From positions 1-64,000 of the forward strand of contig CAVUUR010000007.1 of the NCBI GenBank assembly GCA_963744715.1: a stretch of DNA of 64,000 nucleotides, given 5' to 3'. The stretch is from an uncultured bacterium (GTDB taxonomy: Bacteria > Babelota > Babeliae > Babelales > JACPOV01). The translations under genes and the position numbers were made by a program. The notes under the pieces are model-generated. The model did no database searches. It saw only the letters and a program-made list of their open reading frames with translations, and had not been told where the DNA came from. Shown piece by piece: positions 1-64,000 of the stretch (within the stretch, counting starts at the first letter, position 1; each line of letters opens with the position of its first letter).

Positions 1-1186
1 AATGTAACCATGCGGGATCTATCAAAAAAGGTTATGAATGCGCAAATGTCGGTTGGTGCATTCTTGATAGTATGCAAGCAATTGGGCTTGGCATTGTGGA
101 TGGGGTGATTGATGGGGTTTCTTCTAACAGCTTCCTACGCGCTAGAACATCCCATTGAACTTATTTTAACCGCCATTTTTACCAAGCCGATGCTCATCTA
201 TCATCTTACAAAATTAGCATGCTATGGAACCGCTGCTGCTTTTAATAAGTTATCAACTATTGATTATGAACACGCAACCGCTGATGACATTATCAGTGCA
301 TTGAATAATTCAAAACAAGCCTGCCTTCAAAGCTATCTTGATCTTAGGCAGATGCCACTTTAGAACGCTGGTCTCCCGTGGCGTTGCTTTTGCTACTGAG
401 TTTTATTTGCAAGGCAAACTCAACAAAGGAATCTCAAATTTCTATGAAAAAACGCAAGAAATTGCTGTTAAACGTGCCCACCAATTCGAGATAAAACTTC
501 TTGCACAAAATAATCTTAAACCTGCCCTCGCTAAGGTCTCTCATGCAAATCAACCGGCTCAAACATTAACACCACAAGAACACGTTTCGCACATCTCTAA
601 TAAAAATTCTTTAATTGAAACCGTTCCTCCCAAACAACTACCTCGCCTCGGACATTATTTTGATCCGGAAGGTCTGCCACTCAAAGCGCATATTATTGAG
701 GCTATTGAAAATGGCAGAGCTTATTTCCAAAAAAAGATCGCTCAGTATGAACAAAAAATTGTCAAACGAATACAAGAACTCCTCAAACAACAAGGCATAG
801 AATATACTCAACCTATCACGATCAAAGATATTGACTTCAAACATACTATTGTTGGGGATTGGAACCCACGAAGAAAACAACCAACTGGTCTACATTCAAC
901 TCGCTGGTGTTCTGAAAAGATAAAAGAAAATACAAGAGATACTTCCAATATATTTAAGGCTCAATGGCAAGCTAATGGAGTATCAAAAAAATCAACTTTT
1001 TTCCCTGCCTCATGGGATGAAAATAAAATTGCTGACGCAGCAATAGAAGCTTTACAAAATATTATCGAAGTTGCGGTTAATGATGATGGATTAAAAATAT
1101 GCGGACAAACATTAGAAAAAATTAAAATTAAATTTTATATCGACAATTTTGGCACAATAAAAACTTTTTATCCAAAATTAGATTAA
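1..1186 (+). CDS. Polymorphic toxin 1 (5'-truncated by window; two apparent 1-nt insertions near 118 and 360), C-terminal bacterial EndoU-type RNase
   Basis: Frame from nt 3 reads CNHAGSIKKGYECANVGWCILD and, through ORFs 109-363 and 338-1186, aligns closely with 37987-39930 up to SNKNSL. Tip has HTIVGD...TGLH...KKSTFFPASW...IKTFYP, typical of EndoU_bacteria toxins. Confidence 0.8.
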
Positions 1187-1195
1187 GAGAAATTT

Positions 1196-1558
1196 ATGAA
1201 TATATTACAAATAAAAAAATTAAGTAATCATAATTATTATACTATTGGAAAAGAAACGAATAAAAAAATAGAAATGCTTGGTGAATTTTTACTCGATTGT
1301 GGAAGCGACATTGAAGAAATTAAAATAATGATTAATAAATATAATACTTATAACGCCGACGCAACTCTTACAGAATTACAAGGTAATATCATTACTATTA
1401 GCCACTGGTACTTGAAGTACACTGACTTTATAATACAATACGATACCTTTCTTAAGTTCCTCGATGAATGGAAAGCGGTATACCAAACAAAACCATCAGA
1501 AATTATTATTACTATGGATGATCAGCATCAACATTTTACTATCCAAGCAATTCCTTGA
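1196..1558 (+). CDS. Putative cognate immunity protein of toxin 1
   Basis: 120-aa AT-rich ORF starting 9 nt after the toxin stop; decayed paralog at 42020-42380 in another toxin locus. Confidence 0.7.
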   Translation: MNILQIKKLSNHNYYTIGKETNKKIEMLGEFLLDCGSDIEEIKIMINKYNTYNADATLTELQGNIITISHWYLKYTDFIIQYDTFLKFLDEWKAVYQTKPSEIIITMDDQHQHFTIQAIP

Positions 1559-1755
1559 TTTTTACGTTTTTTACCGCAAGCCACCCAACGGCAACCTCTC
1601 ATAAAATTTTTCTTCATGTTAACTACACATGGCAATGCAGTGGCTACTTGCCTTTTGTAGGGTTAGGCGGGGAATATGAAATAACCAGTAATAAAAATAA
1701 TACTGCATTAAATCAATGGGGTTGTTGGATTAAAGGCGGGTTTACGTTTACCTAA
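1555..1755 (+). pseudogene. C-terminal remnant of a beta-barrel outer-membrane protein gene
   Basis: PTATSHKIFLHVNYTW...LPFVGLGGEYE...ALNQWGCWIKGGFTFT matches the C-terminus of 29471-31048 (PSAVSHKVFTNFAYTW...MPYLGVGGEVE...AFNQWGVWVQGGFAFS); the 5' part is absent. Confidence 0.8.
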
Positions 1756-1768
1756 AGAAGACTAGCCT

Positions 1769-2674
1769 TTAATCAGGTAAATCGCTAAGAGGTTTATTGT
1801 GGCTATATTCTCTAAAATACTTTCTTAATGTACTGCTTGCTCTGTAAATGGAGTATACACTCCGTCCGACAACTAAACCTGCAACCGCACAAAGGGAGTA
1901 TAAACTTATTTTTTCTTTAGTGGCTTCGTTTATTTCAAGCAATTCAAGTATCCTGTATCCATCATTAGCAATAATAGATATAGGAGCAAGGTTTACAAAA
2001 AGGTTCCAACCCATACCACTAGCAATAGTATTATATACAAAAAAATCATTATCCAAATTACGACCCAATGGATCTTTTTTCATTTGTTCAAAAGCCTTTT
2101 TTATATTTTTCTCTTTTTCGTAATACCGATATAGATTTATGCCTGCCAAACATATTGTATCAAATGCTAAACCAGCCAGCGAGCCTGCAGCAAAACCAAG
2201 GATTAGTTTATGTTTATCTTGCTTTGAAGGCGATTGTGTTATATTTGAAATTTTTTCTTTATTAAGCGTGGTATACCCGGCACGACCAATATCTAGAATG
2301 GCCAAAGGATCAAAATTTACATGAATACTCTCTGCAAGTCCAGGATAAAAGAAATTAAATGTGCAATAATGTCCAGCTTCATGAACAAAAGTGTTTGCTA
2401 ACTTCAAAAACACAAATATAGCCAACTGCGCTATGGTTAACCTCGATTTTTGCTTGTTATTGGAATCAACCGTTTGTACCGTTGGCTGCTCTCTATGTTT
2501 TTGTTGAACGCAAAAACTTCCCAATAATACACCGGGTGCCACAATGGAAAAATTTTTGTTTTCTTGAATGTATTTGCTTACACATGTTTTTTTTATTGCC
2601 AATGGCTTGCTCTGTGCATTAGCTGCACAAGCAGTAAACAATACAAAAACAATGTAACCATAACGCACTAACAT
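1769..2674 (-). CDS. M50 (site-2 protease-like) membrane metallopeptidase with signal peptide
   Basis: HEAGH next to a hydrophobic helix, AAGS/P segment and NLAPI...NDG motif; start set at MLVRYG by comparison with the paralog. Confidence 0.75.
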   Translation of the reverse strand: MLVRYGYIVFVLFTACAANAQSKPLAIKKTCVSKYIQENKNFSIVAPGVLLGSFCVQQKHREQPTVQTVDSNNKQKSRLTIAQLAIFVFLKLANTFVHEAGHYCTFNFFYPGLAESIHVNFDPLAILDIGRAGYTTLNKEKISNITQSPSKQDKHKLILGFAAGSLAGLAFDTICLAGINLYRYYEKEKNIKKAFEQMKKDPLGRNLDNDFFVYNTIASGMGWNLFVNLAPISIIANDGYRILELLEINEATKEKISLYSLCAVAGLVVGRSVYSIYRASSTLRKYFREYSHNKPLSDLPD

Positions 2675-2753
2675 TTTTATTCCCATAATCAATTCTTGTA
2701 GTATTTATTTTTTTTATATATAACAAAAATAGAATAGATTAATTTTCTGTAGC

Positions 2754-2850
2754 TATTGACTAGTATGCATTTTTAATTGATGTGTGTCAAAATCGACTTT
2801 TCTCAGGTAAAGAAATCAGGGTATTTGATAGCATATTGCTTTTTACTGTT
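2754..2850. repeat. Upstream non-coding element, copy 1 (copy 2 at 3794-3890)
   Basis: About 97 bp near-identical to 3794-3890; contains TTGAC...GTCAA inverted ends. Confidence 0.85.
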
Positions 2851-2891
2851 GCAAACAATGAAATTAAAGTGAACTATTAATAATGCTCTTT

Positions 2892-3715
2892 TTAATCGCC
2901 GAGACATTCTGAAGTAAAATATGCACTATATATACTGAATAGACCTGCTAAGAGCAAACAGCAATACGCCCCTATTTTTTCTGTAGTAGTTTCATGCATT
3001 CCGACACATTCCAATATTCTGTATCCATCAATTTCTTTTCGATAAGGAATAAATTGTGCAATATTGACTATCGCATTAAGTATAATAGTAGCTTTATATA
3101 TAAAATAATCATGATTTAAATTATAACCTAAGGGATCTTTTTTCATATTCTCAAAAGCTTTTTTTAAAGTACGTTCTTTTTTGTAATACTGATATAAATT
3201 TATGCCCCCCAAGCAAGCCATATTAAATGCCAAACCACCCAGCGGGCCGGCAGCAAGTCCTAAAGCTAATTTATATCTATCTTGTATCGAAGATGATTGC
3301 ATGATGTTTGAAAGTTTTTCTGTATTAACTACAGTACCTCCTCCTGCACCAATATTTAAAGGATTAAGAAAGTCCATATCTACAAAAATACCCCGTGCAA
3401 ATTTAGGAAAAAAGAAATTAAATGTGCAATAATGCCCAACTTCATAGCTAAAGTACTGCCACAATCAAAAAACCCTTTCGTAAACAATTGCACTACCGAA
3501 TGTATTAAACATGCCCTTTGATTTTTATCGGAAGGTGCGTAATACTTCATAGGAATTTTTTTTTGAATTTGAATATGAGGATAACCTAACGATACATCTG
3601 GCGGCAAAATTCCATTAATATTTAATTTATTTATCGGTACCAATGCACTACTTTGCGCATTAATCGCACACGCAGTAAACAATGAAAAAACAATATACCA
3701 ATAACGCAATAACAT
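2892..3715 (-). CDS. M50 peptidase paralog, split by a 1-nt deletion near 3447 (pseudogene or sequence error)
   Basis: ORFs 3380-3802 and 2892-3464 together match 1769-2674; restoring one C gives TLA-HEVGH. Confidence 0.7.
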
Positions 3716-3793
3716 TTTTACTCCATAATCAATTCTTGTAGCACTTATTACTTTATGCCAAAAATAGCTTAATATAATTAGATTTATATTACT

Positions 3794-3890
3794 TATTGAC
3801 AATTATACATTTTTAATTGATGTATGTCAAAAGCGACTTTTCACAGGTAAAGAAATCAGGGTATTTGATAGCAGATTGCTTTTTACTGTT
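3794..3890. repeat. Upstream non-coding element, copy 2
   Basis: Direct repeat of 2754-2850 at an offset of 1040 bp. Confidence 0.85.
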
Positions 3891-3954
3891 TTTATGATAA
3901 ATTTTGCGCACGATACTGTTTATTTTCTATCAAATCTAAAAAAAAGGGTATTTT

Positions 3955-11585: not shown

Positions 11586-14204
11586 ATGGCATCTCCTCAT
11601 GAAGAAAAAATAGCCGGTTCTTTATTAAAACCGGTGCTCATTGAAGATGAATTAAAAGGGTTCGTTTCTTGAATATGCTATGTCGGTCGTGGTGGCACGT
11701 GCCTTACCTGACATCAGAGATGGCTTAAAACCGGTACATCGCCGTGTATTATATACCATGAACCAACTTGGTTTTCATTTTAATAAACCGTATCATAAGT
11801 CCGTACGTATCGTCGGTGAAGTACTTGGTAAGTATCACCCGCATGGTGACCAAGCCGTATATAATACCATGGTCGGGCTTGTACAAATTTTCTCAAAACG
11901 ATACCCGCTCCTTGATGGTCAAGGCAACTGGGGATCAGTTGATGGTGATAATGCAGCCGCTATGCGATACACTGAAGTCCGTATGGCTAAAATGGCCCAA
12001 GAATTATTAGCTGATTTGGATAAAGAGACCGTTCATTTTGTACCAAACTTTGATGAATCAACGGTAGAGCCGGTAGTATTGCCAAGCAGAGTGCCGCATC
12101 TTTTAGTTAACGGTGCTTCTGGTATTGCGGTTGGTATGGCAACGGCAGTTCCGCCTCATAATCTTGGTGAAGTGGTTGATGGCTGTTTGGCGTATTTAGC
12201 TAATGAACAGATTTCAGATGAAGAACTTTTTAACATAATACCAGCTCCTGATTTTCCAACCGGTGGTATTATCTGTGGAAGAGCTGGCATTGTCCGTGCG
12301 TACAAAACAGGCCGCGGCAATCTTATTTTACGCGCCGTTGTAGAAATTGAAGAAACCAAAAAAGGTAATGCTTTAATTGTTAACGAGTTGCCGTATCAAG
12401 TAAATAAAGCTGAACTCATTATTAAAATTGCTGATTTAGTAAAAGATAAAATTATTGATGGCATTTCCACCATTCGTGATGAATCAGATAAAAAAGGAAT
12501 GCGTTTAGTCATCGAACTCAAACGCGGCGAAATTCCAAACGTTGTCTTAAACCAGTTGTTTAAGTTTACTTCAATGGAAACCAGCGTTTCAATTCTCATG
12601 CTTGGGTTACTTGATAATAGACCGCTCATTTTTAGCTTGCGTGATTTAATTCGAGAATTCTTATTGCATCGCCAAGAAATTATTTATAAGCGAACGGTGT
12701 TCGATTTACAAAAAGCGCAGGCGCGTGAACATGTATTAGCTGGTTTTATTATTGCAATCAGCAACATTGATGAAGTGATTACCCTCATTAAACAATCACC
12801 GTCGGCAGAAGAAGCTATTATTAAGTTAAATAAACGCTTCTTGTTAACACCAGAACAAGGCAAAGCTATTTTAGAAATGCGTTTGCAACGTTTAACCGGC
12901 TTAGAACAAGAAAAAATACATGCCGAAATGGGAGAGATTAAAACAATTAATTAGTGAACTTAAATTAATTATAGCAGACAAAACCGTACTCAAACGTGAA
13001 ATAGAAAAAGAATTACTTGAAGTAAAACAAGAGTATGCCGATAAACGCCGCACAAAAATTGAAGGTGCTATTGATCTGCTTACTGAAGCTGACCTCATTC
13101 CGGATGAAGAAGTAGTGGTGACGTTAACCGATCAGTGGTTACATCAAACGCGTACCGCTTACTACCTATGGTGTTCAACATCGCGGCGGAAAAGGCAAAA
13201 TGGGCATGGCATCATTGGAACAATCAGAAGATATTATTCATGACGTTTTTGTTGCAAAAACCCATGATGAACTACTCTTCTTTACCAATTTAGGCCGCGT
13301 ATACAATATGCACGTGTTTCAAGTTCCGGAAGGTTCTCGTACCGCAAAAGGACGTGCTATCGTTAACTTGCTTGAATTGACTCCAAATGAACACGTGGTT
13401 AAGTTGCTCTGTACTCGTGATCTAGAAAATAAATTGCTCGTGATGCTCACCAAAAAAGGCATTATTAAGCGCACCGATGCTACCGCTTTTGAAAAAATCA
13501 GAAGTTCGGGTATTAGAGGTGTCAGCTTACGTGAAGACGATGAATTGGTATTCTGCGCTTTAAGCTCTGGCAATGATTCAATTGTTATTGCCTCGGCAAA
13601 AGGTCAGGGAATTCGCTTCAAAGAAACTGAAGTTCGTGTCATGGGCCGCCAAGCTGCCGGCGTCATGGGAATTCGCTTACGTTCTGGCGACCGGGTTGTT
13701 GGCATGGAAATTATTCCAGATGACCGTGATATTTTATTTGCCACCGAACGTGGTTATGGAAAACGAGTAAAAGCTGAAGATTTCCGCGTTGCTCATCGTG
13801 GTGGTTACGGTGTAAGAACCATACCAACCGATGAACGTAACGGCATGGTTATTGGCCTTGCTGGGGTCACGGATGCTTCAAACGTGTTACTCATTGACGC
13901 TGCAGGAAAAATGATTCGATTATTGCCAACGGAAATTAGAACCATGGGCCGCCAAGCAAAAGGTGTTCGTCTAATTAAACTAGATACGGATCAAATATTA
14001 GCCAACGTGATTGCTTTTGAAGAAGATCATCATGAAGGTGAAACTGAATCGGCTTCCACTCCGCCAACTACCGATGGCATAAAAACTAGTATGTTTGATG
14101 GTTCTTTGCCAGAGATGTTCCAAGCCGCTAGAGTAGATCATGATGAAGTAGATACCGAAACCGATGATCAATTTTCTGATGATACTGATGAAACAATAGG
14201 TTAA
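11586..14204 (+). CDS. gyrA: DNA gyrase subunit A (apparent frameshifts near 11660, 12945, 13130)
   Basis: [29 protein letters not shown], GyrA-box QHRGGKG and C-terminal pinwheel repeats. Confidence 0.97.
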
Positions 14205-22397: not shown

Positions 22398-23216
22398 TTA
22401 GCATGACTGAATTTGTTTGTTATTCAATTGGGCAACGATATCTCGAGCTATTTGCAAGCGCTTTGAATGTTTAGGATGCGTTATTCCCGGATTATCACCA
22501 GCTAATAATTTTTGCTGTACAAATTCTACATAACCTTGTGCATATTCTTTATTTTTTAGCGCTGTTTGAATATCAGCACGTTCTTCTTTAAAACGACAAT
22601 ATACATTAAGAGGTTCGTTTTGCGCAGCACAATCGACAGTATGACGTTTAAGCACTTCTTGCAACACATCACTCATAAAGAAATCTTGATGTTTCATATG
22701 CTGAAGTTCATGACCAATTACAAATTTTTTTGCTCTATACGAAAGCTCATTGAATCGTTTTTCATTAACAAAAATAATATTATTATTCACGCCTGCACAT
22801 GAATGGTCATCCCATGAGGTAATACTAATTTTACTGGGATCAATATCAAAATCTTTTAATACCGAACGAATTAACGTGCATGTATCAGCGGAAATAGTTG
22901 AGTTTTTATCTAGTTTATTCTTTTTATGATCATTCCGAGCACATTCTTTTTTTCTCTGCTCGCATGCCTCGCGCGTAACACCATATGCATGCGCGAGACC
23001 ATTCCATGCATCAATTTCAAACTTTTTAATATAATGAGCATAGTTGATATGATCACTAATAACGCGTTGTTGTGCTGGCTGATGACCACTACGGTGCGTA
23101 ATAGCTGGTTGCTCAATACTGTGCGTAGTATTTGAATAATCAAAAAGTGCTTTTCCTACGCACAACCCGAGTGCTAAAACTAATACAATTTTCGATATGT
23201 TTTTATTATGCGTCAT
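22398..23216 (-). CDS. M48-like zinc metallopeptidase, array member 5
   Basis: N-terminal anchor, GHELQH, EERAD, THP. Confidence 0.8.
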   Translation of the reverse strand: MTHNKNISKIVLVLALGLCVGKALFDYSNTTHSIEQPAITHRSGHQPAQQRVISDHINYAHYIKKFEIDAWNGLAHAYGVTREACEQRKKECARNDHKKNKLDKNSTISADTCTLIRSVLKDFDIDPSKISITSWDDHSCAGVNNNIIFVNEKRFNELSYRAKKFVIGHELQHMKHQDFFMSDVLQEVLKRHTVDCAAQNEPLNVYCRFKEERADIQTALKNKEYAQGYVEFVQQKLLAGDNPGITHPKHSKRLQIARDIVAQLNNKQIQSC

Positions 23217-23234
23217 AGCAAATCTCCTTATTTC

Positions 23235-23987
23235 TTACGCCGTTCTATCTTGATGTGATTGCAAAATATCTTGAGCCATCAACAGTCGCTCGGAATATTT
23301 TGGATAGCCCACATGCTCGTCGTCTCCATCTTCTTCAAGACACGTTGCTGAGAATTCCAGCAATCCTTGAGCGTAATCTTTACCTTTTGATGCTGCTAAA
23401 AAGTCTGCGCGTTGTTCGGTAAAACAAGCATAATACGCAAATGCTTCTTCAGCATCCTTTTTATCACAATCTGCTTCACCGCTTAATACCCGCAACGCAT
23501 GCCGCATAAAATAATCATTATGAATAATATGTTGCAATTCATGCCCAATAAGAAAACGAAGGGCTAACTCAGAATAATGACTGCACGCTTGCTCATCAAT
23601 AAAGATGGTGTCATGACCTGCTGCGGCGGGAGAGTGATAATGATATGCCTGTAATTTTATCATGTCACGGTCAACGTTAAAATCCGGCAGTACCGAATAT
23701 ATAATGTTGCGTATATATTCAGGTATTGGTTTTTCAGATAACGGTAGTTTTAATCTTGGTTTTTCCGAAAGATTATTTAAAAAATTCTGGCATTTTTCTT
23801 TGGTAATACCGCATTTTTCTAATTTTATCCAAACTTGTTGTTCCAAAGGCGCCAAGTAATCAAGAACTTTTTGTTCTGCTATATTAGTAGACGGCGGCGT
23901 AGCAATTGGCATTTGTTGTGTTATGCCATAAACAAATAAACTGCCCAACCCGTATAAAAAAATAAATAGTAATTTTTTAGTTATCAT
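23235..23987 (-). CDS. M48-like zinc metallopeptidase, array member 4
   Basis: GHELQH, EQRAD, GYP. Confidence 0.8.
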   Translation of the reverse strand: MITKKLLFIFLYGLGSLFVYGITQQMPIATPPSTNIAEQKVLDYLAPLEQQVWIKLEKCGITKEKCQNFLNNLSEKPRLKLPLSEKPIPEYIRNIIYSVLPDFNVDRDMIKLQAYHYHSPAAAGHDTIFIDEQACSHYSELALRFLIGHELQHIIHNDYFMRHALRVLSGEADCDKKDAEEAFAYYACFTEQRADFLAASKGKDYAQGLLEFSATCLEEDGDDEHVGYPKYSERLLMAQDILQSHQDRTA

Positions 23988-24005
23988 AGTAAATCCCCTT
24001 ATTTC

Positions 24006-24758
24006 TTACGCAATCCTATCTTGATGTAATTGTAAAACATTCTGAGCCATCAACAGACGCTTGGAATTTTTTGGATAGCCCATATGCTCGTCGTCTCCAT
24101 CTTCTTCAAGACACGCTGCCGAGAATTCCAGCAATCCTTGAGCATAATCTTTATCTTTTGATGCAGTTAAAAGGTCTGCGCGTTGTTCAGTAAAACAAGT
24201 ATAATATGCCAATGCTTCTTCAATATCCTTTTTATCACAATCTGATTTTTTGCTTAATTCTTCTAATGAATATTTCGTCACATAATCATGGTTGATAATA
24301 TGCTGCACTTCATGCCCAATAATAAAACGCAAAACTAAATCAGAATAATGATTGCATTCCTTCTCATCAATAAAAATAGTGTCATGACCAGCTGCGGCAG
24401 GGGAGTAATAATAATATGCTTGTAATTTTATCGTGGCAGGATCAACGTTAAAATCCTGCAATACCGAATGTATAATGTTGCGTACATGCGCAGGAATTGG
24501 TTGGTCAGACAACGGCACTTCTATTCTTGGTTTTACCAAAAGATTATCTAAAAAATTTTGACATTTTTCTTTGGTAATACCACATTGTTCTAATTTTATC
24601 CACGCCTGTTTTTCCAATGAATCTAAATAATCAATTGTTTTTTGATCTATTTGACGATTGGTTTTTATCGTAGCAATTGGCATTTGTTGTGTTATGCCAT
24701 AAACAAATAAACTGCCTAACCCGTATAAAAAAATAAATAATAATTTTTTAGTTATCAT
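24006..24758 (-). CDS. M48-like zinc metallopeptidase, array member 3
   Basis: GHEVQH, EQRAD; close duplicate of member 4. Confidence 0.8.
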   Translation of the reverse strand: MITKKLLFIFLYGLGSLFVYGITQQMPIATIKTNRQIDQKTIDYLDSLEKQAWIKLEQCGITKEKCQNFLDNLLVKPRIEVPLSDQPIPAHVRNIIHSVLQDFNVDPATIKLQAYYYYSPAAAGHDTIFIDEKECNHYSDLVLRFIIGHEVQHIINHDYVTKYSLEELSKKSDCDKKDIEEALAYYTCFTEQRADLLTASKDKDYAQGLLEFSAACLEEDGDDEHMGYPKNSKRLLMAQNVLQLHQDRIA

Positions 24759-24772
24759 AATAAATCCCTGTT

Positions 24773-25540
24773 TTAACATTGTTGCAACGTACTATTATGA
24801 TTTGATTGCAAAATATCTTTGGCCATTAACAATCGCTTTGAATATTTTGGATGGGTTATCCCACCCTTTTTCTCATCTGACGTATCGCCAGCAATGACTC
24901 TTTCCATGTATGCTACATACCCTCTGGCATAGCGTTCATTTTTAAGTGCCGCTTTAATATCAGCACGCTCCTCGGTAAAACGAGAATACATATTTAAAGC
25001 ATGTTGTAGCTCTTCTTTTGTTTTTTGATTATCACACTGCTTCATAGCATACTTTGTTGATCCATCTTCATGGATTACGTGTTGAATTTCATGACCTATA
25101 ACAAAATACTGCTCATCAGGTGTTAGTGTATTAAATCGCAATTCATTAACATAAACGCCAAATTCAGTTGCACCAGCACAACAATGATGATTTATTGGTA
25201 TAACGCTAATCCTGTTTTGATTAACACCAAAATCGTCTAAAACAGTACGTACTATTGTTTCAGTTTTTGGAGATACCTGATCTTTTGCCTGAGCGCGAAC
25301 CTCTTCTTTTAAGTCATCAATATAGATAGATTTATGTTTTTCGCATTCTTGTACCTTTATACCAACATCATTCAGTGCACGCCATGCTTTATCTTCATAA
25401 TCTTTGAGATAATCGATATAATTAGCGTGTTGTCCGATAACAGGTTCGATAGAATTGGAATTATGCAAAAGCACTTTTCCTAGAACTATTCCAATTATTA
25501 ACACTAGTATGATTTTGAATGTTTTTTTATTATGTATCAT
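24773..25540 (-). CDS. M48-like zinc metallopeptidase, array member 2
   Basis: GHEIQH, EERAD, THP. Confidence 0.8.
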   Translation of the reverse strand: MIHNKKTFKIILVLIIGIVLGKVLLHNSNSIEPVIGQHANYIDYLKDYEDKAWRALNDVGIKVQECEKHKSIYIDDLKEEVRAQAKDQVSPKTETIVRTVLDDFGVNQNRISVIPINHHCCAGATEFGVYVNELRFNTLTPDEQYFVIGHEIQHVIHEDGSTKYAMKQCDNQKTKEELQHALNMYSRFTEERADIKAALKNERYARGYVAYMERVIAGDTSDEKKGGITHPKYSKRLLMAKDILQSNHNSTLQQC

Positions 25541-25553
25541 AGTAACTTCCTTT

Positions 25554-26300
25554 TTAACAAGACTGAATTAAGATGTTGTTTTTCCACTGATGGAAAATAT
25601 CTTCCGCCATTTGTATTCGTTTTGAATTTTTAGGATGCGTTATTCCTGGATTATCACCGACTAATAACTTTTGCTGAGCATATTCCACGTACCCTTGTGC
25701 GTATTCTTTATTTTTTAAGGCTGCTTGAATATCAGCACGTTCTTCTTTAAAACGGGCATATACGTTAATCGCTTCATCTACTGATTTACCATCAATAGGA
25801 CGATCTTTAATGCGCTCATTTAAGACTTCTCTCATTAAGAAATCTTGATTTTTCATATGTTGAAGTTCATGGCCGATTACAAACTTTTTTGCTTTAGGAG
25901 AAAGCTCATTAAAAATTTTTTCATTAACGAAAATAATATTATGATCTGTTCTTGCCGATGTATTATCATTACATGCTGTAATAATGATAGTTTTCGGATC
26001 AACGTCAAAATCTTTTAATACTGAACGAATTAAAGTGCAGTTATCTAGTGAAACGAATTTTTTATCTACGTTACTGCTTTTTGTAAGATTTTTACGTAAC
26101 TCTTGCTTTCTTTGTTCACATTCTTCGCGTGTAAGATCATATGAATGCGCGAGGCTATTCCATGCATTAACCTCAGATGCTTGTATATAATCAACGTAAT
26201 TTACACGACCAGGAATCGAACCTGTAGGTATCTTTCCTATCGCTATGCCAAGTACTAAGGCTACACCCATACTGGCTATTCTTCTGTAATTGTAATTCAT
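25554..26300 (-). CDS. M48-like zinc metallopeptidase, array member 1
   Basis: GHELQH, EERAD, THP; closest to member 5. Confidence 0.8.
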   Translation of the reverse strand: MNYNYRRIASMGVALVLGIAIGKIPTGSIPGRVNYVDYIQASEVNAWNSLAHSYDLTREECEQRKQELRKNLTKSSNVDKKFVSLDNCTLIRSVLKDFDVDPKTIIITACNDNTSARTDHNIIFVNEKIFNELSPKAKKFVIGHELQHMKNQDFLMREVLNERIKDRPIDGKSVDEAINVYARFKEERADIQAALKNKEYAQGYVEYAQQKLLVGDNPGITHPKNSKRIQMAEDIFHQWKNNILIQSC

Positions 26301-33755: not shown

Positions 33756-33878
33756 ACTTTTAACCTCATCACTATTTATTAAAAAAAATAATTTCAGTTT
33801 TAATAATAATACGCCACTAATTTTAAAATCAACAATCTTTTTAAAACCAACATTAATTACTACATGGTGACTGTTTTT
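33475..33878. repeat. About 400-bp near-identical direct repeat (5' end plus upstream region), copy 1
   Basis: Matches 35126-35529 at an offset of 1651 bp with few mismatches. Confidence 0.9.
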
Positions 33879-33891
33879 AAATAAAAATAGG

Positions 33892-35698: not shown

Positions 35699-37243
35699 AT
35701 GCACATATCATACTTAGTTATCTTTTTTACACTGTTATTAGCTCCCTATTCTTTCAGCAATGCTTCTGATGCCAGCTTGAATGAACCCTTAAAGGATTTA
35801 TCAACCTACATTGGCCAAGGATTACAAGAAGGAATTGCCGGCGGTGTTTCCACCGGTTTAGCAGAAGGAATACCTGCTGCAATCAATGCGGGTGCAGAAT
35901 CCTTTAAAAATCAGTTTGAGGAAACCGGCGATGCTCATCAAGGGATTTCCAATATTTTTAAGTCTCTGGGTAATCAATTTGAACACCATGGTGAGGGGCG
36001 TCATGCCATGCAAAATTTTTTCGGCGCCGTCAGTGATGAATTGGATGAAAACGGTCAAGGCAGAAAAATGGCATTAAATGCTGCCGACACCACCAGCGCG
36101 TACGTTAATAATGTTGGTAAAACCGTTGGCTCTGTTATTACAAACATAGTAATAAAAAATTCACTTATTACGGTTCTCAGCGCCTTGGGAATTGCTACGA
36201 TGTGGTATGGTTCTAAAGTATTATGGAATTTCATTGAGCGAAAACTTAAACAACCGACTCTTATCATAGAATCTTCACGTAAAAATGTTTTTCAACGCAT
36301 GAAAGGTGCATTTACCCGTAAACAAGAGCCGGTTAAACGTCCTATGATTTTTGAACAAGCAACACAAGAGCGCTTACAAGCACTTATTGAAACGACTAAA
36401 AATATTAATACCAATATTAAACGTGGTAAAAAAAATATCGCCTACAGAAATCTTTTGCTCTACGGGCCTCCCGGAACTGGTAAAACATTATTTGCGCAAC
36501 AATTAGCGCAACAATCAAATATGGAATTTGCTATAACAAGCGGTGCATCATTTTCTAAAAAAGGTGCTCTTGAAGCAATGGATGATCTTTTTGCCTGGGC
36601 AAATAAAAGCAAGGGACTTATTTTATTTATTGATGAGGCAGAATCACTGATGCCGGATAGAAACAATCTCAATCCTGATAGTGATAGTTATCGCATATTT
36701 ACGAGCTTCCTTAATTATACCGGAACGCGCAGCAATAGATTTATGATTGTTATGGCAACCAATCGTTTAAACGTCATTGATGAAGCGATGCATCGCCGTA
36801 TTGATGATTTAGTTGAGTTGTCACTCCCAGAAATTTCGCAACGAATTGCTATACTACAAATATACCGTGACGTTATTCTCTTTGACACCAATAATAATGA
36901 ACACGCCTTTGCTTATTCTGCTAAAAACATTCTAACCAATGCCAAGATAGAACAGATTGCAGCGCAATTAGAAGGTTTTTCAAACGGTGATCTTGAAGGG
37001 CTTATTAATATGATAAAAACCGATGCCGACAGTACTCCCGCTGGCATTATAACGGAATCCATTGTTGATACCGCCGTTACGCGAATGCTCATTAAACATG
37101 CAACCCTCAAAAAAATAGAACTGCCTAACAATAAGAATAACCAAACCACAAACTACTGGATAACGATAAAAAGCTATGTAGGAAGTTTTTTTGATTGGGT
37201 ATGTTCTTTCATACAATGGCCATTTGCAACACAAAAAAAATAG
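35699..37243 (+). CDS. AAA+ ATPase resembling eukaryotic ATAD3, with signal peptide and TM helix
   Basis: RNLLLYGPPGTGKT, LFAWANKSKGLILFIDEAE, FLNYTG, ATNR...RRID; pre-AAA ERKLKQPTLIIESSR. Confidence 0.8.
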   Translation: MHISYLVIFFTLLLAPYSFSNASDASLNEPLKDLSTYIGQGLQEGIAGGVSTGLAEGIPAAINAGAESFKNQFEETGDAHQGISNIFKSLGNQFEHHGEGRHAMQNFFGAVSDELDENGQGRKMALNAADTTSAYVNNVGKTVGSVITNIVIKNSLITVLSALGIATMWYGSKVLWNFIERKLKQPTLIIESSRKNVFQRMKGAFTRKQEPVKRPMIFEQATQERLQALIETTKNINTNIKRGKKNIAYRNLLLYGPPGTGKTLFAQQLAQQSNMEFAITSGASFSKKGALEAMDDLFAWANKSKGLILFIDEAESLMPDRNNLNPDSDSYRIFTSFLNYTGTRSNRFMIVMATNRLNVIDEAMHRRIDDLVELSLPEISQRIAILQIYRDVILFDTNNNEHAFAYSAKNILTNAKIEQIAAQLEGFSNGDLEGLINMIKTDADSTPAGIITESIVDTAVTRMLIKHATLKKIELPNNKNNQTTNYWITIKSYVGSFFDWVCSFIQWPFATQKK

Positions 37244-37986: not shown

Positions 37987-39930
37987 ATGCGAGCATTTTA
38001 TTTTTTGATTATACTTTGGGCTATTTCTTGTTGTGCACAGGAAATATTCTCGAGTCCTCCAACCGGTTTTCTTCTCGCTCACTACAAAGCAAATGATGTT
38101 CCATCGCGGCATTCTGAATGCGCTGATCGTTTGCACGCCATAGTTAAATCAACCGATCGGCAAAAATCTTATGAATTGGATGAACAGCGCCGGCGCATAC
38201 CACAACCACGGCTTGCATCCTTATCTCTTTCTGAACAATACCGTACTCTGATCAATCAAGCCTACGCAATTGACCAATCAGCACCACAAGAAGTACTTAA
38301 CATTGTACAAGAACTTGTCGATGTTAATGCGTATATCAATGATCCATGTGCAACGGTTGATTTTCTGATAACGCGTGCCGATGGCAGTCAGCCAATTCGT
38401 ACTACTTTTTTTAACGAGCAAGGAATAATTAAAGGATTTTCTCGTGCAAACAAAAATATTGCGCAGCATCCTGAAGCATGCCGTGCATTTATGTATTGCG
38501 ATGCATTATTTGCCGATTCACAAGGAATTATCCATGAAAAATCTCGAACAGCGCTCATCGCCATCAATGAATATTTGAGTTCTGATGAACTTCCCGGACC
38601 TCCCGGAAGTTATGCAAGTGTGCTCTATGATTTGTTACGCACCTGCCATCCAGAATTAGAAACTTCTTTGCAACATGAATGCGATGAAGTTGCAATAACC
38701 TTTCTTAATTATGATGAGCCCGATAATGGATACAATAATCTTTCCGCAGCGCGAGAACAAGCAGCAAAAGTATATCACGAAGAACACGGTGCAAAACAGC
38801 AATGTTTCGTTCAATTACATGCAACATCGCGCGCTCTCCTGCGCGAGCATAACTATGATTATCGCAAATTTACGTTCATCAATGGTAATGCTTTGCAACG
38901 CCAACTCCTTGATGAAACCGGACAGCTGATTAATCAGATTGCAAGTTATTCCGAATTATACAACGAGCCAATTGCACATTTGTTAGTTGACATGGCCGAT
39001 GTTGCTGCCGAATGCAATCATGCAGGTTCCATCAAAAAAGGTTACGAATGTGCAAATGTCGGTTGGTACATTCTTGATATCATGCAAGCCGTCGGGCTTG
39101 GCATCGTAGAAGGTCTTATTGATGGTGTTCGCTTAACTGCAACATATATCAAACAACATCCCATTGAATTTGCATTAAGTGCTATGTTTACAAAACCAAT
39201 GCTTGCGTATCATCTTGCAAAATTGGTCATACGCAGTGCATCAGTTGCTTTTGATCTGTTATCAACCATTGATTATGAAAATGTAACGTTTGATGATGTG
39301 CTAACCTCCATCGATAATGCAAAGCAAACTTGTTATACCGGGTATCAAACGCTCAGGAAAATGCCACTCAAAACATTGGTTGCCGGCGGCGTTGCGTTTG
39401 CCACTGATTGTTACTTGCAAGGTAAATGCGCTAAGGGCGTTTCCGCGTTTTATGAGAAAACACAAGAAATCTTACTTAAGCATGCACAAAAATTTGATTG
39501 GAAAGCCTACTTTAACGATCATCTCAGACCCGGCTTTATTAATGTTTTTCCTCGAGGTAAGCAACCGGTTAAAAACCCCCAAGAAAATTTTGCGCAAACC
39601 TCGAATAAAAATTCACTTGAAGCACCAAAAAACATACTAAAAGTTCATACTATGAAAGAGTTTTTTGAAAATACTCTTTTTGGACAGGAATTAAAAAATA
39701 AGGTAATAAAGACAAACTATTTTTATAAAAATCAGCCAATTTACAAATTACAACAAAAAGTACAAAGTCATACCATAAGCAAAGGTGATTATTTTTATCT
39801 CGATAATTTACATTTTGATCATATAGAAGTTTTTGATCAAAGTGGCTCAATGAAATCAGTGCTAAATTTTGATGGAACAATTAATATAGAAAAAACAAAA
39901 AAAGCTTACGGAAGAACTATTAAACTTTAA
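37987..39930 (+). CDS. Polymorphic toxin 2, full length, signal peptide; C-terminal putative colicin E3/BECR-like RNase
   Basis: Signal MRAFYFLIILWAISCCAQE; scaffold shared with toxin 1; AT-rich tip GDYFYLDNLHFDHIEVFD...VLNFDG...KT..A.GR.I resembles tips of MafB/CdiA-type toxins. Confidence 0.75.
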   Translation: MRAFYFLIILWAISCCAQEIFSSPPTGFLLAHYKANDVPSRHSECADRLHAIVKSTDRQKSYELDEQRRRIPQPRLASLSLSEQYRTLINQAYAIDQSAPQEVLNIVQELVDVNAYINDPCATVDFLITRADGSQPIRTTFFNEQGIIKGFSRANKNIAQHPEACRAFMYCDALFADSQGIIHEKSRTALIAINEYLSSDELPGPPGSYASVLYDLLRTCHPELETSLQHECDEVAITFLNYDEPDNGYNNLSAAREQAAKVYHEEHGAKQQCFVQLHATSRALLREHNYDYRKFTFINGNALQRQLLDETGQLINQIASYSELYNEPIAHLLVDMADVAAECNHAGSIKKGYECANVGWYILDIMQAVGLGIVEGLIDGVRLTATYIKQHPIEFALSAMFTKPMLAYHLAKLVIRSASVAFDLLSTIDYENVTFDDVLTSIDNAKQTCYTGYQTLRKMPLKTLVAGGVAFATDCYLQGKCAKGVSAFYEKTQEILLKHAQKFDWKAYFNDHLRPGFINVFPRGKQPVKNPQENFAQTSNKNSLEAPKNILKVHTMKEFFENTLFGQELKNKVIKTNYFYKNQPIYKLQQKVQSHTISKGDYFYLDNLHFDHIEVFDQSGSMKSVLNFDGTINIEKTKKAYGRTIKL

Positions 39931-39935: not shown

Positions 39936-41081
39936 ATGATAAATGAAATAAAACAATTACTATCACTTTTGAGCAATTTTACACAAAAATATGCAACGAA
40001 TACGCAATTTCTTACAAAAAATATTACAGAAAAGGAACAAGAAGCTGATGAACTTATAATACTATATAAACAACTTGATGAAAAAATTACATCTTTTAAG
40101 AAAAGCCTATCTGATAAAAACAAAGCCGTTGATGTGTTGGTTGAAATAGCGGTTCTTTACTCCTATTATGTAGAATATTTTGAAAGCATTAAAGATCTCG
40201 TAACTAATATTATTCAGTCAAACCAGGAAGATCAAAAAAATACACATGAGATAGCATCTGATATTTTATACAGGAAACAATATGTAACCTATGATACAAA
40301 ACGTGACCTCTATCTCTTAACGTACACGTCCGAAAATATAATTATTAATTATAATTATAAAGGCATCGCACTATTAAATAATGATTTGAAAAATTCTCGT
40401 GATATTTTTTTATTTCAAGGAATTTCAATTACCCATGTCTATAAACACTTTTTTTATCCTCATTTAATAGCTTTGTATTGTGCAGAAAATCAATGTATTA
40501 TACAGCTTGATTTAAATAATTTTTATCCCAAAAATATACCATTACCTTTTAAGCAAGATGATGTCTTTCTTTCATCAATTTATTTCTGGATGGAATCGAC
40601 CTTAATAATTGCCACAACTCATGCATTATTTTATGAACTAAATATGGAATTAAAAACGATTCAACCTATTGCTCAACATTATATAAAAAATCGTTTTGAA
40701 CTTTTATATGAGTTCACTCAATCTGTTTTACAGAATAATAATGTATATGATATACATTCAGATGATTATACATTCATCATTAAAGATACAATCAAAAATA
40801 CGTTTTCACGGATTGATATGATTGCCAATACTATCACAAATACGTTGTATTATAATGCAGAAGTCCATGATATTAGATACGATAATGGATTTTTCATGTT
40901 TATTCATGAAAATTTTATCGTAATTGAACATGATAAAAAAATTATTGCAACAATACATGCGGCTCAAGGCCGAAGATTTTTACGTGCATCGTTTCTAGAT
41001 AGCTACACAAAAATCGTAGTACTTAGTGATTCGCAGGCCAATTATCATTGCGCATTAGCATTATACGATCTTTGTTTATAA
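39936..41081 (+). CDS. Putative cognate immunity of toxin 2 (N-terminal helical domain plus beta-rich extension)
   Basis: Starts 5 nt after the toxin stop; the first ~100 aa resemble 41094-41393 (YSYYVEYFESIKDLVTNII vs YSYMVWHFEQIDNLIKKIL). Confidence 0.55.
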   Translation: MINEIKQLLSLLSNFTQKYATNTQFLTKNITEKEQEADELIILYKQLDEKITSFKKSLSDKNKAVDVLVEIAVLYSYYVEYFESIKDLVTNIIQSNQEDQKNTHEIASDILYRKQYVTYDTKRDLYLLTYTSENIIINYNYKGIALLNNDLKNSRDIFLFQGISITHVYKHFFYPHLIALYCAENQCIIQLDLNNFYPKNIPLPFKQDDVFLSSIYFWMESTLIIATTHALFYELNMELKTIQPIAQHYIKNRFELLYEFTQSVLQNNNVYDIHSDDYTFIIKDTIKNTFSRIDMIANTITNTLYYNAEVHDIRYDNGFFMFIHENFIVIEHDKKIIATIHAAQGRRFLRASFLDSYTKIVVLSDSQANYHCALALYDLCL

Positions 41082-41093: not shown

Positions 41094-41393
41094 ATGGAAA
41101 AATTATTATTTAAAACTATCCAAGTTTTAGAAATTTTAAATAAACAGATACCTTATCAAGCAATAACTAAACAAGAATTCAATGAAGAGAAAGAAAATAT
41201 TGGGGATCTTTTGGTATTACAACAGAAAATTGATGGATTACTAGAACACCTTACAAACAAAGAAGTTGTACAGAATAAAGATTTAGTCAACGAATATCTT
41301 GTTCATATGTACCTTAACTATTCGTATATGGTATGGCATTTTGAGCAAATTGATAATCTTATAAAAAAAATACTTACAACGTACCCAGATTAA
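41094..41393 (+). CDS. Putative immunity paralog
   Basis: 99-aa helical ORF related to the N-terminus of 39936-41081. Confidence 0.55.
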   Translation: MEKLLFKTIQVLEILNKQIPYQAITKQEFNEEKENIGDLLVLQQKIDGLLEHLTNKEVVQNKDLVNEYLVHMYLNYSYMVWHFEQIDNLIKKILTTYPD

Positions 41394-42032: not shown

Positions 42033-42380
42033 AATTAGTAAAAATTCAACGAAGCTATAGTGAATTTTTTACCAGCAACAGAAGAGCTATGGACACTTGG
42101 TGAATTTTTACTTGATTGTGGTAGAAACGTTGAAGATGTTAAAACAACTATTAAAAATTACGGAGATTATAATGCTCATCCTACTCTGGCTGATTTGCAA
42201 GGTAATACTATTGTTATTGACCATTAGTGTGCGACTTCTCCGGATTTTGTCATAAAGTATGACACCTGTATTAAATTTCTTGATCAATGGGAAACGCTAT
42301 ACGAAAAAAGACCGTCAGAAATTATTATTACTATGGATGATCAGCACGAACATTTTACCATTCGAGCAATTCCTCAATAA
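42020..42380 (+). pseudogene. Decayed paralog of the toxin 1 immunity gene (not in ORF track)
   Basis: MQTLKLVK…(frameshift)…LGEFLLDCG...QGNTIVIDH*...KFLDQW...PSEIIITMDDQHEHFTIRAIPQ; TAG at 42225-42227 replaces the Trp codon of 1196-1558. Confidence 0.9.
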
Positions 42381-61618: not shown

Positions 61619-61655
61619 AAATTATTTTTCTAAATAACAAAAGATCTGAGTCTCG

Positions 61656-62324
61656 CTAGTCTTTTAACATTTTTTCAATAACATCGATAACCACGTGATT
61701 CGGATAATTATTTTGAACGTAATGCCGGAAAAAAGATTTAGGATTTATATCATCGTACAGCAATTGCTCAGTGATAGGCCCCTTTATATTTTTTAGGCCC
61801 ATTCTTAATGCAGCACGTGCTTGAACAATTTTATTTTGCTCGAAGTAATAAGTACCAAGATCGATATAATGCTGAACGTAATCAGGAAAAAATTCTATGG
61901 CATTTAATAATGATTGTTCATATTCATTTTTATCATTTTTTTTATAATACCATGATTTTGAAAGCTCAATCATCGATTGCATTTCTTTATTACAAATTTC
62001 AAGCGCACATAATTTTTTAAAAAGTACAGCATCAACCCCATCAACCCATATGTCCTGCAAATATGCCAGCAATAAAGCAATTGAAGAATCACTATAATGG
62101 TTTAAAAAACAGGTTAAATATCTAATACTTTCATCGAGACTGTTAAAGGGTCCTATATACAAAGCAAGAGCAAAACGTATTAATATTTCAGAGTCATAGG
62201 GATGTTGTGTAATACAATTTTCACAATCTTTTTTGAGTATTAAAATATTGTGCGGTATCATATTTGATTTTTTATAGTTTATATAATATTGCTCTAATAG
62301 CCGTATTAAGTCATTTTTTCTCAT
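61656..62324 (-). CDS. TPR-like helical protein in toxin 3 locus (putative orphan immunity)
   Basis: AT-rich; L..AI...P.YV..Y..LG..Y TPR pattern; second gene after toxin 3. Confidence 0.5.
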   Translation of the reverse strand: MRKNDLIRLLEQYYINYKKSNMIPHNILILKKDCENCITQHPYDSEILIRFALALYIGPFNSLDESIRYLTCFLNHYSDSSIALLLAYLQDIWVDGVDAVLFKKLCALEICNKEMQSMIELSKSWYYKKNDKNEYEQSLLNAIEFFPDYVQHYIDLGTYYFEQNKIVQARAALRMGLKNIKGPITEQLLYDDINPKSFFRHYVQNNYPNHVVIDVIEKMLKD

Positions 62325-62379
62325 AATATTCTATTACATATACGCAGCAATAATATTATTAAAAATAAAATTATGCTAA

Positions 62380-62679
62380 CTATGAACAATAATCCATTAT
62401 CTCAGGAAAATCATTATCATTCAATGCTCTGATAACTTTAATAATTACGGGGCCCAGCATTTTTCCATCTATACCAGGAACATTAAAAATTTCTTCAGGA
62501 TTCGTTAAATCAATGGTTTTTATAGGGTTAACAAATTTTTTCGTATTATAGAATGTTATATTTTTTTTATTTAAGTTAATACTTATATAGAAATTTTTTT
62601 CATGATATTCATCTTCAACTAAATAATAGAGGTTATTGTTTTCATTTAAAATTTTTCTGATTTTTACATAGATTCCCAT
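62380..62679 (-). CDS. Putative cognate immunity protein of toxin 3
   Basis: 99-aa AT-rich ORF starting 8 nt after the toxin stop; ends DFPEIMDYCS. Confidence 0.65.
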   Translation of the reverse strand: MGIYVKIRKILNENNNLYYLVEDEYHEKNFYISINLNKKNITFYNTKKFVNPIKTIDLTNPEEIFNVPGIDGKMLGPVIIKVIRALNDNDFPEIMDYCS

Positions 62680-62687
62680 AAAGCATC

Positions 62688-63998
62688 CTATAATTGATCA
62701 TCCCAATTATATATTTTTTTACTTTCATAATGTGCTGTTCGCCAATCTATATTATTTTCCATAATGATAGATTCAGCTAATTCATGCAGTAGTAATCTTA
62801 GATCTGATTGAAAAAAATTTCCATCGATTAATCTTTTCCAAGCCTGCGCCATGTCTATATCTGGATCAAAACGTTTTACGCCCCCTGCAAGAATATGCTC
62901 TCTATAAAAAATATGATCTTTTATTTTTTTTATTATATTTTCTGGAATATTGCTATTTTTAGATATACTAATTGTATCAGTTGTTATAGCTCTAATGTAG
63001 TCATAAAAGTTTATCGCTTCTTTCTCCAATTTCATAAATTTTTCAGCAGATACTCTATCTATGATTGCACCAAATCGCACATCGGGAATTTTATTATTCA
63101 TAGAGTTAACAATTTTATTTAGTTCGAGTAACTCTAATGATTCATTTAATATTGTATTTATTTTTTCTTCTGTAACTAAAAATTTATTAAAGGCTCTTAA
63201 AGGTTTTAAACGTATATCGACATTTTGAGAGAATGATTCGAGTGGTATCTCATCTAAAGTGTTAATAATGCCAAGCTCATTCTCTAATGCTTTGCCCAAG
63301 CTCTGTATTTGTGCGCGTCGCATTGGGTGGCCAGCAATACATTCGGTCTCCTCCAGTACACGCATAGTACGACATAAATTACTTAATACATTTTTAAGGG
63401 GCTTTAAAGTAGTAATTAATTTATGCTGCAAAAAACCGCTAGTGATATAATGAATTCCTAACGTAAATTTTTCTTCTCGTGGCAAATTCATTAAAAAAGT
63501 GCATAATTCTTGCTCTTCTTGCAAATGGTCAAAAATGCTGTCCCAATGCTGTAATGCATAAGAGCTATCATAATCAACGGAAGCTAATTTTCCTAAAGAC
63601 CATAAAACCTTACCAGTCCCTTTAATAATATTATAAGCCGTCGCAATTGGATGTCGTATGTCATTACTGAGATCAATAGCTACTTTAACGGTTTCTAATG
63701 CTCCAATGCTTATGTATTTACATATCGATATGCCAGATGCTAAACAGTGAATGCCCAAATCCTGCTTAGGCTGCGCACCCTTTTTCATGTATGATAAATA
63801 AAGATGCTTAATGCGATTGTTAGTTTCTCGCACGATAGCAGATTGCAATTCATTCAATTGATTGATTAAACCATTTGAATAAGTATCTAACTGATTATTT
63901 TTTAGTTCAACTTCTTGTAAAATATTTTTTACAACGCCAAGTAACGCATGGTCACTAATCAGGTCTTCCAATACGATAGGATCAAAATGTATTTTGTG
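62688..63998 (-). CDS. Polymorphic toxin 3 (5'-truncated by window), tip with RFDPD...MAQAW.RL..G...D..LL.HELAE...AH motif
   Basis: Frame open to the window edge; remote scaffold similarity to toxins 1/2; tip pattern recalled from variable C-termini of other polymorphic toxins. Confidence 0.65.
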   Translation of the reverse strand, partial: HKIHFDPIVLEDLISDHALLGVVKNILQEVELKNNQLDTYSNGLINQLNELQSAIVRETNNRIKHLYLSYMKKGAQPKQDLGIHCLASGISICKYISIGALETVKVAIDLSNDIRHPIATAYNIIKGTGKVLWSLGKLASVDYDSSYALQHWDSIFDHLQEEQELCTFLMNLPREEKFTLGIHYITSGFLQHKLITTLKPLKNVLSNLCRTMRVLEETECIAGHPMRRAQIQSLGKALENELGIINTLDEIPLESFSQNVDIRLKPLRAFNKFLVTEEKINTILNESLELLELNKIVNSMNNKIPDVRFGAIIDRVSAEKFMKLEKEAINFYDYIRAITTDTISISKNSNIPENIIKKIKDHIFYREHILAGGVKRFDPDIDMAQAWKRLIDGNFFQSDLRLLLHELAESIIMENNIDWRTAHYESKKIYNWDDQL

Positions 63999-64000
63999 GA

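Follow-up and report, generated by a model that had tools for sequence, protein, structure and literature searches.

We analysed a window of 64,000 nucleotides, the first 64,000 positions of contig CAVUUR010000007.1 (C7:1-64000), from an uncultured bacterium of the phylum Babelota whose 1.26-Mb genome is assembled in 12 contigs and is 86% complete. Here C7, C9, C12 and so on denote contigs of this source genome, L0xx numbered homolog loci, and G0xx and G232 genomes of the phylum; sources available to us in part only are cited as such. Babelota (Dependentiae, TM6) are described as strictly intracellular in protists (PMC12172432, in part). The window holds three loci of a putative polymorphic toxin family, T1, T2 and T3, with the following features:

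1..1186, + strand: toxin T1, of which the contig start leaves the 3′ part only (the latter half of the conserved domain, then linker and tip)
833..1177, + strand: T1 tip, bacterial EndoU nuclease (PF14436; E 3e-11, 44.2 bits, cut-off 25.3)
1196..1558, + strand: predicted cognate immunity gene of T1, 120 aa, with homologs behind EndoU tips elsewhere
1576..1759, + strand: 184-bp repeat, a 94% copy of the 3′ end of a C12 gene that lies before a toxin N-terminal piece
37987..39930, + strand: toxin T2, complete, 647 aa (signal-like segment at aa 1-17, variable region, conserved domain, linker and tip)
38770..39531, + strand: conserved pre-tip domain of T2 (aa 262-515), helical
39622..39927, + strand: T2 tip, predicted colicin-E3-like RNase (YLDxLHxDHxE)
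39936..41081, + strand: predicted cognate immunity gene of T2, 381 aa, a two-module fusion
41094..41393, + strand: second copy of the helical immunity family, 99 aa
41430..42032, + strand: DUF2247 (Imm38; E 2.6e-18), an orphan at T2 and in the cognate position at the toxin at C7:81112
42060..42374, + strand: homolog of the T1 immunity gene, broken (window positions 1277-1555 match it at 74% DNA identity)
61656..62324, − strand: TPR-like gene, 222 aa, probable orphan immunity (TPR_17, 24.3 bits, just below the cut-off)
62380..62679, − strand: predicted cognate immunity gene of T3, 99 aa
62688..64000, − strand: toxin T3, 3′ part, cut by the window edge; the whole gene (768 aa) is C7:64994-62688
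62691..63050, − strand: T3 tip, unnamed family, with conserved K.H.F, D, W.RL, HE..E and AH residues

A preliminary description, made from the letters of the window alone, had proposed three toxin loci with a shared scaffold, unrelated tips and adjacent immunity genes. The likeness it saw between positions 1-613 and 39011-39618, followed by complete divergence, was borne out: 1-609 and 39011-39614 align at 68.8% identity over 618 columns (E 3e-55), fairly called closely similar, not near-identical. Identity is ~85% in the first 100 nt, 56-76% up to ~nt 450 and below 50% after nt 500. No pair among the three tips (T1 EndoU, T2 predicted colicin-E3-like, T3 of an unnamed family) was matched by BLAST at E<=0.01, in agreement with their description as unrelated. 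The AT-rich open reading frames (ORFs) said to follow each toxin within 10 nt begin 9, 5 and 8 nt past the stops of T1, T2 and T3, and their GC contents are 28.1, 27.6 and 24.3%, versus 35% for contig C7. What the description had missed are frame breaks in T1, the continuation of T3 to C7:64994 and an array of four immunity-type genes at T2. Three loci was also too small a count, as the source genome carries seven (T1-T3, C7:81112-83040, C9:77060, C7:143326 and C11:9525), in unrelated neighbourhoods, and the family is phylum-wide.

The part conserved across genomes is a helical domain of ~250 residues just before the tip (T2 aa 262-515). The earlier claim of a conserved N-terminus therefore did not hold: what is shared is this pre-tip domain, and the region between signal and domain varies in length (50-1155 aa) and in sequence (33 N-terminal clusters among 139 proteins, the largest with 94). 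A profile of 17 domain sequences matched 127 of the 261 phylum genomes at E<=0.001, in 16 of 21 families and with patchy presence, and 94 genomes (hand count) at E<=1e-10; single genomes held up to 11 matches. Searched against 1.84 billion 50%-cluster representatives, it gave 998 matches. The best 150 were listed, the other 848 being weaker, and 144 of the 150 were scanned against Pfam, one own-genome copy and five others, mostly short, being left out. The homologs that bear an organism name (2, 2 and 0 in three sets of 10 looked up, and 4 of 111 in another set) all belong to Ca. Babeliales. Two word-based searches, with T2 aa 20-535 (only two own-genome copies found) and from the first alignment (only 5 proteins), had low sensitivity and were superseded by the profile searches.

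We found no match of this scaffold to a described toxin delivery family. The Pfam scan of the 144 representatives gave no credible match on the domain itself, and a DNA_processg_A overlap in one of them (E 1.4e-4, below the cut-off) was set aside. NCBIfam gave no match near its cut-off for 24 proteins, the 647-aa T2 protein matched neither Pfam nor NCBIfam, the domain profile had no sequence match in the PDB, and Foldseek returned nothing at E<=0.001 for two domain models. One domain sequence searched against plasmids and phages had no match either, a weak result from a single query. In the better model (118 sequences, mean pLDDT, the predicted local distance difference test, of 74.5), residues 11-100 form a helical subdomain predicted with confidence, residues 114-158 are poorly placed, and further helices follow; structural alignments of the model reached at best Z 8.1 over 71 residues with no clear fold, which does not show that the fold is new. 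Hydropathy across the family is raised (0.5-1.0) from residue 85 to ~163, a Gly/Ala-rich, moderately hydrophobic helical stretch that surrounds an HP motif, and the end of the domain is basic. A T[PAI][ED]G motif marks the border of domain and linker in 164 of 225 members (background 0.0002 per window of sequence) and is absent from T2, T3 and two other own-genome copies tested. A role as a self-cleaving protease, considered for conserved H, E, D and C residues, was dropped, since of these T2 has neither the H nor the D nor the C.

In T3, a remote version of the domain lies at about 63399-63680 (− strand), much as the preliminary description had supposed. Direct BLAST of T3 against the 647-aa T2 was not significant (E 0.47-0.57), but a profile of 146 domains from other genomes found T3 at E=0.004 among the 4340 six-frame ORFs of the source genome; the next non-member scored E 0.44 and the best reversed-sequence control 0.43. 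The N-terminal region of T3 matches a clear family member (E 6e-7), and its aa 434-766 can be aligned to a protein whose domain scores 8e-49. Confidence in its membership stays moderate, since aa 340-560 alone had no match in 13 loci picked by T3 similarity and matched only 4 of 249 domain-bearing proteins at E<0.01. We accept T3 as a remote member, the weakest in the family.

The homologs do not end in one common C-terminus. Tips of at least 50 aa are present in 137 of 153 proteins and fall into 36 clusters, and among 172 pairs with domains at least 80% identical (taken from a larger set, pairs not being independent) 127 differ in tip. Pfam named the tips of 31 of the 144 representatives: EndoU (9), Ntox17 (7), Ntox21 (7), Ntox35 (4), DUF4258 (2), barnase-type (1) and Cytotoxic (1). 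The colicin E3 and barnase tip families we take to be RNases. All 31 named tips are predicted RNases, by the family functions given in the tables of PMC3482391 and in the BECR preprint 10.64898/2026.08.28.747851 (both in part). Searches of PDB sequences with the tips gave no match, and those of PHROGs only weak ones. Tips of the source genome also cap LXG, CDI-type (contact-dependent growth inhibition), PT-TG and MuF toxins, and in two such cases the downstream partner families are shared as well; the T3 tip, for instance, also terminates a PT-TG protein, a haemagglutinin-repeat protein and phage MuF proteins.

The tips are accompanied by partner genes. We surveyed the downstream genes of 30 loci, two of which ran off the contig; in 24 of the 28 with a full C-terminus, a same-strand ORF begins between 34 nt before and 25 nt after the toxin stop. 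Named partners are CdiI_ImmP, CdiI_N, DUF2247 and DUF6980. The partner family tracks the tip family, as a genomic association, in the T2, C7:81112 and T3 cases, and tip and partner travel together across phyla, the T2 tip with the helical family and the C7:81112 tip with DUF2247. Homologs of the T1 partner, which has no Pfam match, stand behind EndoU tips at C9:79106 and in L019, L041 and L050 (E 3e-7 to 2e-5), and 11 of the 13 loci chosen for their likeness to T3 contain a homolog of the T3 partner (E 3e-17 to 4e-7). In L017, a homolog of the TPR-like gene beyond the T3 partner stands immediately after an Ntox35-like member (E 4e-14). Behind each of the EndoU-tipped paralogs at C9:77060, C7:143326 and C11:9525 come an immunity gene and then one or two more orphan repeats, made up of a partial tip plus an immunity gene. 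At L038:2691-3705, a transposase-like ORF (judged by eye) lies directly behind a shortened Ntox35-like tip.

The T2 tip matched, in a profile-profile comparison (91%, E 1e-6, 40 columns), a group anchored by a PF09000 match; with the tip of a Metabacillus LXG toxin it shares 46% identity, and with an ORF inside a VENN/haemagglutinin cassette array of Duffyella 42%. The 381-aa partner joins a helical module typical for the T2 tip to a module found behind colicin-E3-like tips elsewhere. Then come the second helical copy, which matches genes behind T2-type tips including that of the Metabacillus LXG locus (E 4e-6), DUF2247 and the broken T1-partner copy. The toxin at C7:81112-83040 is 66% identical to T2 over aa 1-535 and unrelated afterwards, and behind it lie DUF2247 and then an intact T1-partner homolog. 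Its tip is paired with DUF2247 both here and in four Bacillus plasmids. DUF2247 is Imm38, the partner of Ntox19 (PMC3482391, in part), and the C7:81112 tip ends in HxxF as Ntox19 does, which suggests kinship. Across Babeliae the T2-type tip has two or three partner families (helical, DUF6980-like and beta-rich). A predicted complex of the T2 tip with its partner module scored 0.17 against a mark of 0.32 with no controls folded and was counted neither way. The T2-type tip also occurs on Babeliae proteins that lack the conserved domain (L070, L071, L073, L076-L078, L084, L093, L079-L081, L087, L088, L091 and L092), seven of which carry Hint matches; at least one further unnamed scaffold group bears it (L071, L073, L078 and L084).

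T1 is cut by the contig start, and its sequence changes frame twice, at single-base breaks near nt 125 and 360, so that it occupies three frames. Since gyrA (window 11680-14204) is likewise split over three frames, assembly indels are a likely cause, and the breaks in T1 are perhaps assembly errors. At the start of C12 (C12:373-2) lies a piece of toxin N-terminus that shares 92% identity with the 5′ end of T2 and is probably the N-terminal piece of T1. The counterpart of the 184-bp repeat lies at C12:389-571, so that the two copies would flank the T1 module as a direct repeat, as after insertion into the end of a gene. Given this N-terminal piece and the repeat behind the immunity gene, T1 is probably one gene with ~680 nt unassembled; we infer the join of C12 to C7, and hence the flanking of T1 by the repeat. 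Across window nt 99-400, T1 is 96-100% identical to the C7:81112-83040 copy; past nt 400, T2 and the C7:81112 copy form the closer pair (88-92%) for ~100 nt, and then all three diverge. Such shifting pairwise identity points to a recombination mosaic.

The claim that T2 has an N-terminal signal peptide stood in so far as the protein begins with a hydrophobic signal-like segment. As evidence for a dedicated export route it is weak, since by a crude hydropathy proxy such starts are common in the background (233 of 434 long ORFs of the source genome, versus 100 of 131 family members). With a Cys at residue 15 in both T2 and the C7:81112 paralog, a lipoprotein signal is possible. The source genome encodes two secretins and two strong T2SSE ATPases. 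VipB, GPD and TrbI were not found in this 86% complete genome, with positive controls for VipB and GPD; ShlB and TPS were unmatched, as were the controls for both. Type II was the sole secretion system found in Babela (PMC4378268; PMC4776705; both in part), and vesicles were seen in Chromulinavorax (PMC6561590, in part). Export by Sec and a type II system thus fits both the secretins and ATPases found here and the presence of type II alone in Babela.

Toxins that combine a signal peptide, a lineage-specific domain and a variable tip are an already described class: Neisseria MafB (DUF1020) and Microscilla-N are exported by Sec and a type II secretion system (T2SS) and have lineage-specific domains (PMC3482391 section 37). 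The Babelota family resembles them in its signal-like start, apparently lineage-restricted domain, variable nuclease tips, downstream immunity genes and orphan cassettes, and EndoU, Ntox17, Ntox21 and Ntox35 are listed for MafB (PMC3482391 section 37). It differs in that Pfam and NCBIfam gave no DUF1020/MafB-N match, that its domain adjoins the tip behind a variable region of 50-1155 aa, that the loci examined by eye have no conserved upstream mafA-like gene, the upstream genes differing, and that the family spans a whole phylum of intracellular parasites. CdiA/VENN, LXG, PT-TG and MuF toxins share tip families and partly immunity families with it; the CDI, LXG/WXG, PT-TG and Phage_Mu_F delivery domains were matched in none of the members scanned (the 144 representatives plus our own), whereas LXG and Phage_Mu_F were detected in outside toxins carrying the same tips. 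The TPS domain, haemagglutinin repeats and VENN of CDI are likewise absent from these members, and Rhs/YD repeats, PAAR and VgrG of Rhs/type VI secretion system (T6SS) effectors were not seen in the 144 representatives. The preliminary description had noted no known delivery or Hint motif, which is correct for the window; among the 144 representatives one has a Hint match, the other 143 none. This hybrid, P0077, carries both an N-terminal PT-HINT and the conserved domain; NCBI labels one Hint-bearing member a polymorphic toxin-type Hint protein. Toxins with a signal peptide and a pre-toxin Hint domain occur in the same genome (three genes) and draw on the same tip pool. They form a second family, at C2:54851-56050 (+), C9:143360-142251 (−) and C9:2771-1728 (−), built of a signal-like start, PT-HINT, a Gly-rich hydrophobic stretch and a tip (Ntox21, Cytotoxic or unnamed); the gene at C9:143360 is followed by six immunity-like genes, the first CdiI_N. 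Ca. Bodocaedibacter vickermanii (PMC8163844, in part) also combines polymorphic toxins and orphan modules in an intracellular protist symbiont; it belongs to another phylum, has a T6SS, of which no markers were found here, and carries other tips.

In every genomic respect, from the layout (signal-like N-terminus, variable region, ~250-aa helical domain, short linker, exchangeable nuclease-type tip) to the small cytoplasmic partner gene and the further tip and immunity cassettes that often follow, the system works like polymorphic toxins as far as sequence can tell, and no tested delivery family fits it. The proposal of polymorphic toxins in an intracellular protist parasite accordingly agrees with the taxonomy of the relatives, the tip diversity, the immunity pairing and the orphan cassettes. 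We consider it probable that this is a Babelota-wide polymorphic toxin family for conflict between strains, and we infer its toxicity, export and target from sequence. The toxins would be exported by Sec and released through the type II machinery or outer-membrane vesicles; the variable region would recognise a target, the Gly/Ala-rich hydrophobic helices of the conserved domain would take the tip across the target membrane, and the tip would cut tRNA or rRNA, while the partner protein would shield the producing cell and its clones. Tips would be swapped, and old immunity genes left in arrays, by recombination within or immediately after the domain. Likely victims would be bacteria that share the host cell or food vacuole, whether related Babeliae or others.

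Several observations weigh against this picture. The mean hydropathy of the domain peaks at 1.0, under that of a plain membrane anchor, its hydrophobic stretch is modelled with pLDDT <50, and no fold match stands out, so that its role in translocation is a guess. No tip could be named in 113 of the 144 representatives. Of the 28 loci, four have no downstream gene close by: in one a transposase-like ORF (by eye) sits behind a shortened tip, in another the tip is lost, a third shows a gap of 145 nt, and the fourth has no evident gene. Besides the frequency of signal-like starts in the source genome, signal peptides are reported for 44% of Chromulinavorax genes, and the Babeliae literature found, seen in part, gives no account of obligate intracellular cells meeting rivals (PMC6561590, in part, for the former).

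A bolder version of the reading as strain conflict holds that the domain is a new, Babelota-only translocation module that delivers RNases to rivals in a shared host (superinfection exclusion) without type V, VI or VII secretion systems, and that the toxins may also reach the bacterial-type ribosomes and tRNAs of a surrounding host mitochondrion. We regard this as possible rather than likely.

The preliminary description had left the target as co-infecting bacteria or the host, and the immunity arrays favour rival bacteria as the main one. That the proteins are instead host-directed effectors, with RNase tips secreted into the protist against host or mitochondrial RNA and partners that protect the producer only before export, appears unlikely. 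Mitochondrial ribosomes are of bacterial type, which would suit such effectors. Babeliae secrete many host effectors, the Chromulinavorax endoU has been read as a host-degrading nuclease, and a host mitochondrion wraps Chromulinavorax (PMC6561590, in part). The Amoebophilus APD1/APD2 effectors come close, as proteins of a protist endosymbiont with a signal peptide, a conserved N-terminal domain and polymorphic C-termini (PMC3482391 section 37). Compared by description, not by sequence, APD1/APD2 follow a lipobox and carry host-directed domains, whereas the Babelota proteins have antibacterial-type nuclease tips, immunity genes and replacement cassettes. Counting for strain conflict, polymorphic toxins turned on the host in amoebal endosymbionts have no immunity genes (PMC3482391, in part). 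Behind T2 stand DUF2247 and the T1 partner, orphans whose matching tips lie elsewhere in the genome; such genes, together with the rapid replacement of tips, fit conflict among kin and not a host target. The tips are shared with antibacterial LXG, CDI-type and MuF toxins, and none of the 144 scanned representatives has a ubiquitin-system or ankyrin C-terminus.

We find it improbable that the domain is a diverged known pre-toxin or pore-forming module, PT-TG-like or CAMP-factor-like, which would make the family an ordinary branch of a described delivery system. The second match in the ESM Atlas was a PT-TG cluster, at a score of 0.87, below the 0.9 mark; PT-TG, however, was unmatched in the 144 representatives and in 17 domains at E<=10, and the domain profile aligned to one PT-TG toxin with a probability of 0.2%. 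Three CAMP-factor chains align over model residues 1-108 (Z 7.2-7.6, root-mean-square deviation 3.2-3.7), a lead only, as such Z values lie within the range common for helical bundles. Least convincing, and very improbable, are selfish or addiction modules, mobile toxin-antidote cassettes with the domain mainly a recombination anchor or surface stalk: the apparent 184-bp direct repeat around T1, the unrelated neighbourhoods, the patchy presence in 127 of 261 genomes and the addiction proposed for the Bodo endosymbiont toxins (PMC8163844, in part) are set against the signal-like start in 100 of 131 members, an antidote that is downstream and cytoplasmic, the absence of flanking repeats at the six other toxin loci of the source genome, and the cultured Babeliae, which as described in the sources seen in part are parasites, one shown lysing its host, and ill-suited to addiction.

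Polymorphic toxins in Dependentiae, TM6 or Babelota, or this scaffold, were not found in the literature, where large supplementary tables or subscription papers could list them. In the parts available, PMC6561590, PMC12172432 and PMC4776705 do not use the word toxin, and PMC4378268 uses it for toxin-antitoxin pairs; the phylum goes unmentioned in those of PMC13483458 and of the BECR preprint. The design belongs to a known class, and the domain and its phylum-wide use appear undescribed. As a polymorphic toxin family described for an entire phylum of obligate protist parasites, whose genomes measure 1 Mb, this would be the first. About half of the phylum genomes spend several loci on it, which would imply frequent competition between strains for the host cell, a subject that the Babeliae literature found, seen in part, does not discuss. 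The unannotated, putative delivery domain, with ~1000 sequence clusters, could serve as bait for new toxin tips and immunity families, and the 'endoU' genes of Babeliae may be re-read as probable antibacterial weapons.

Elsewhere in the phylum, full-length members stand in tandem at G232:C1:1007383-1016377 (four in 9 kb), G025:C1:427678-436424 (three in 9 kb) and G027:C1:770535-774146 (two within 4 kb). In the source genome, the small contigs C1 and C8 have 61% and 46% GC versus ~35% elsewhere and may represent rRNA or contamination. Just upstream of T2, the window encodes two proteins with ankyrin tails and an AAA ATPase that has a weak ATAD3_N match (32187-35406, − strand, and 35699-37243, + strand). 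Beyond the T1 locus, window 1769-3802 (− strand) holds a pair of paralogous ORFs that look secreted and have an HExxH-like motif, the second of them apparently broken into two frames, and at 22398-26300 (− strand) five ORFs of 248-272 aa stand in tandem, of which three show weak Peptidase_M48 matches.

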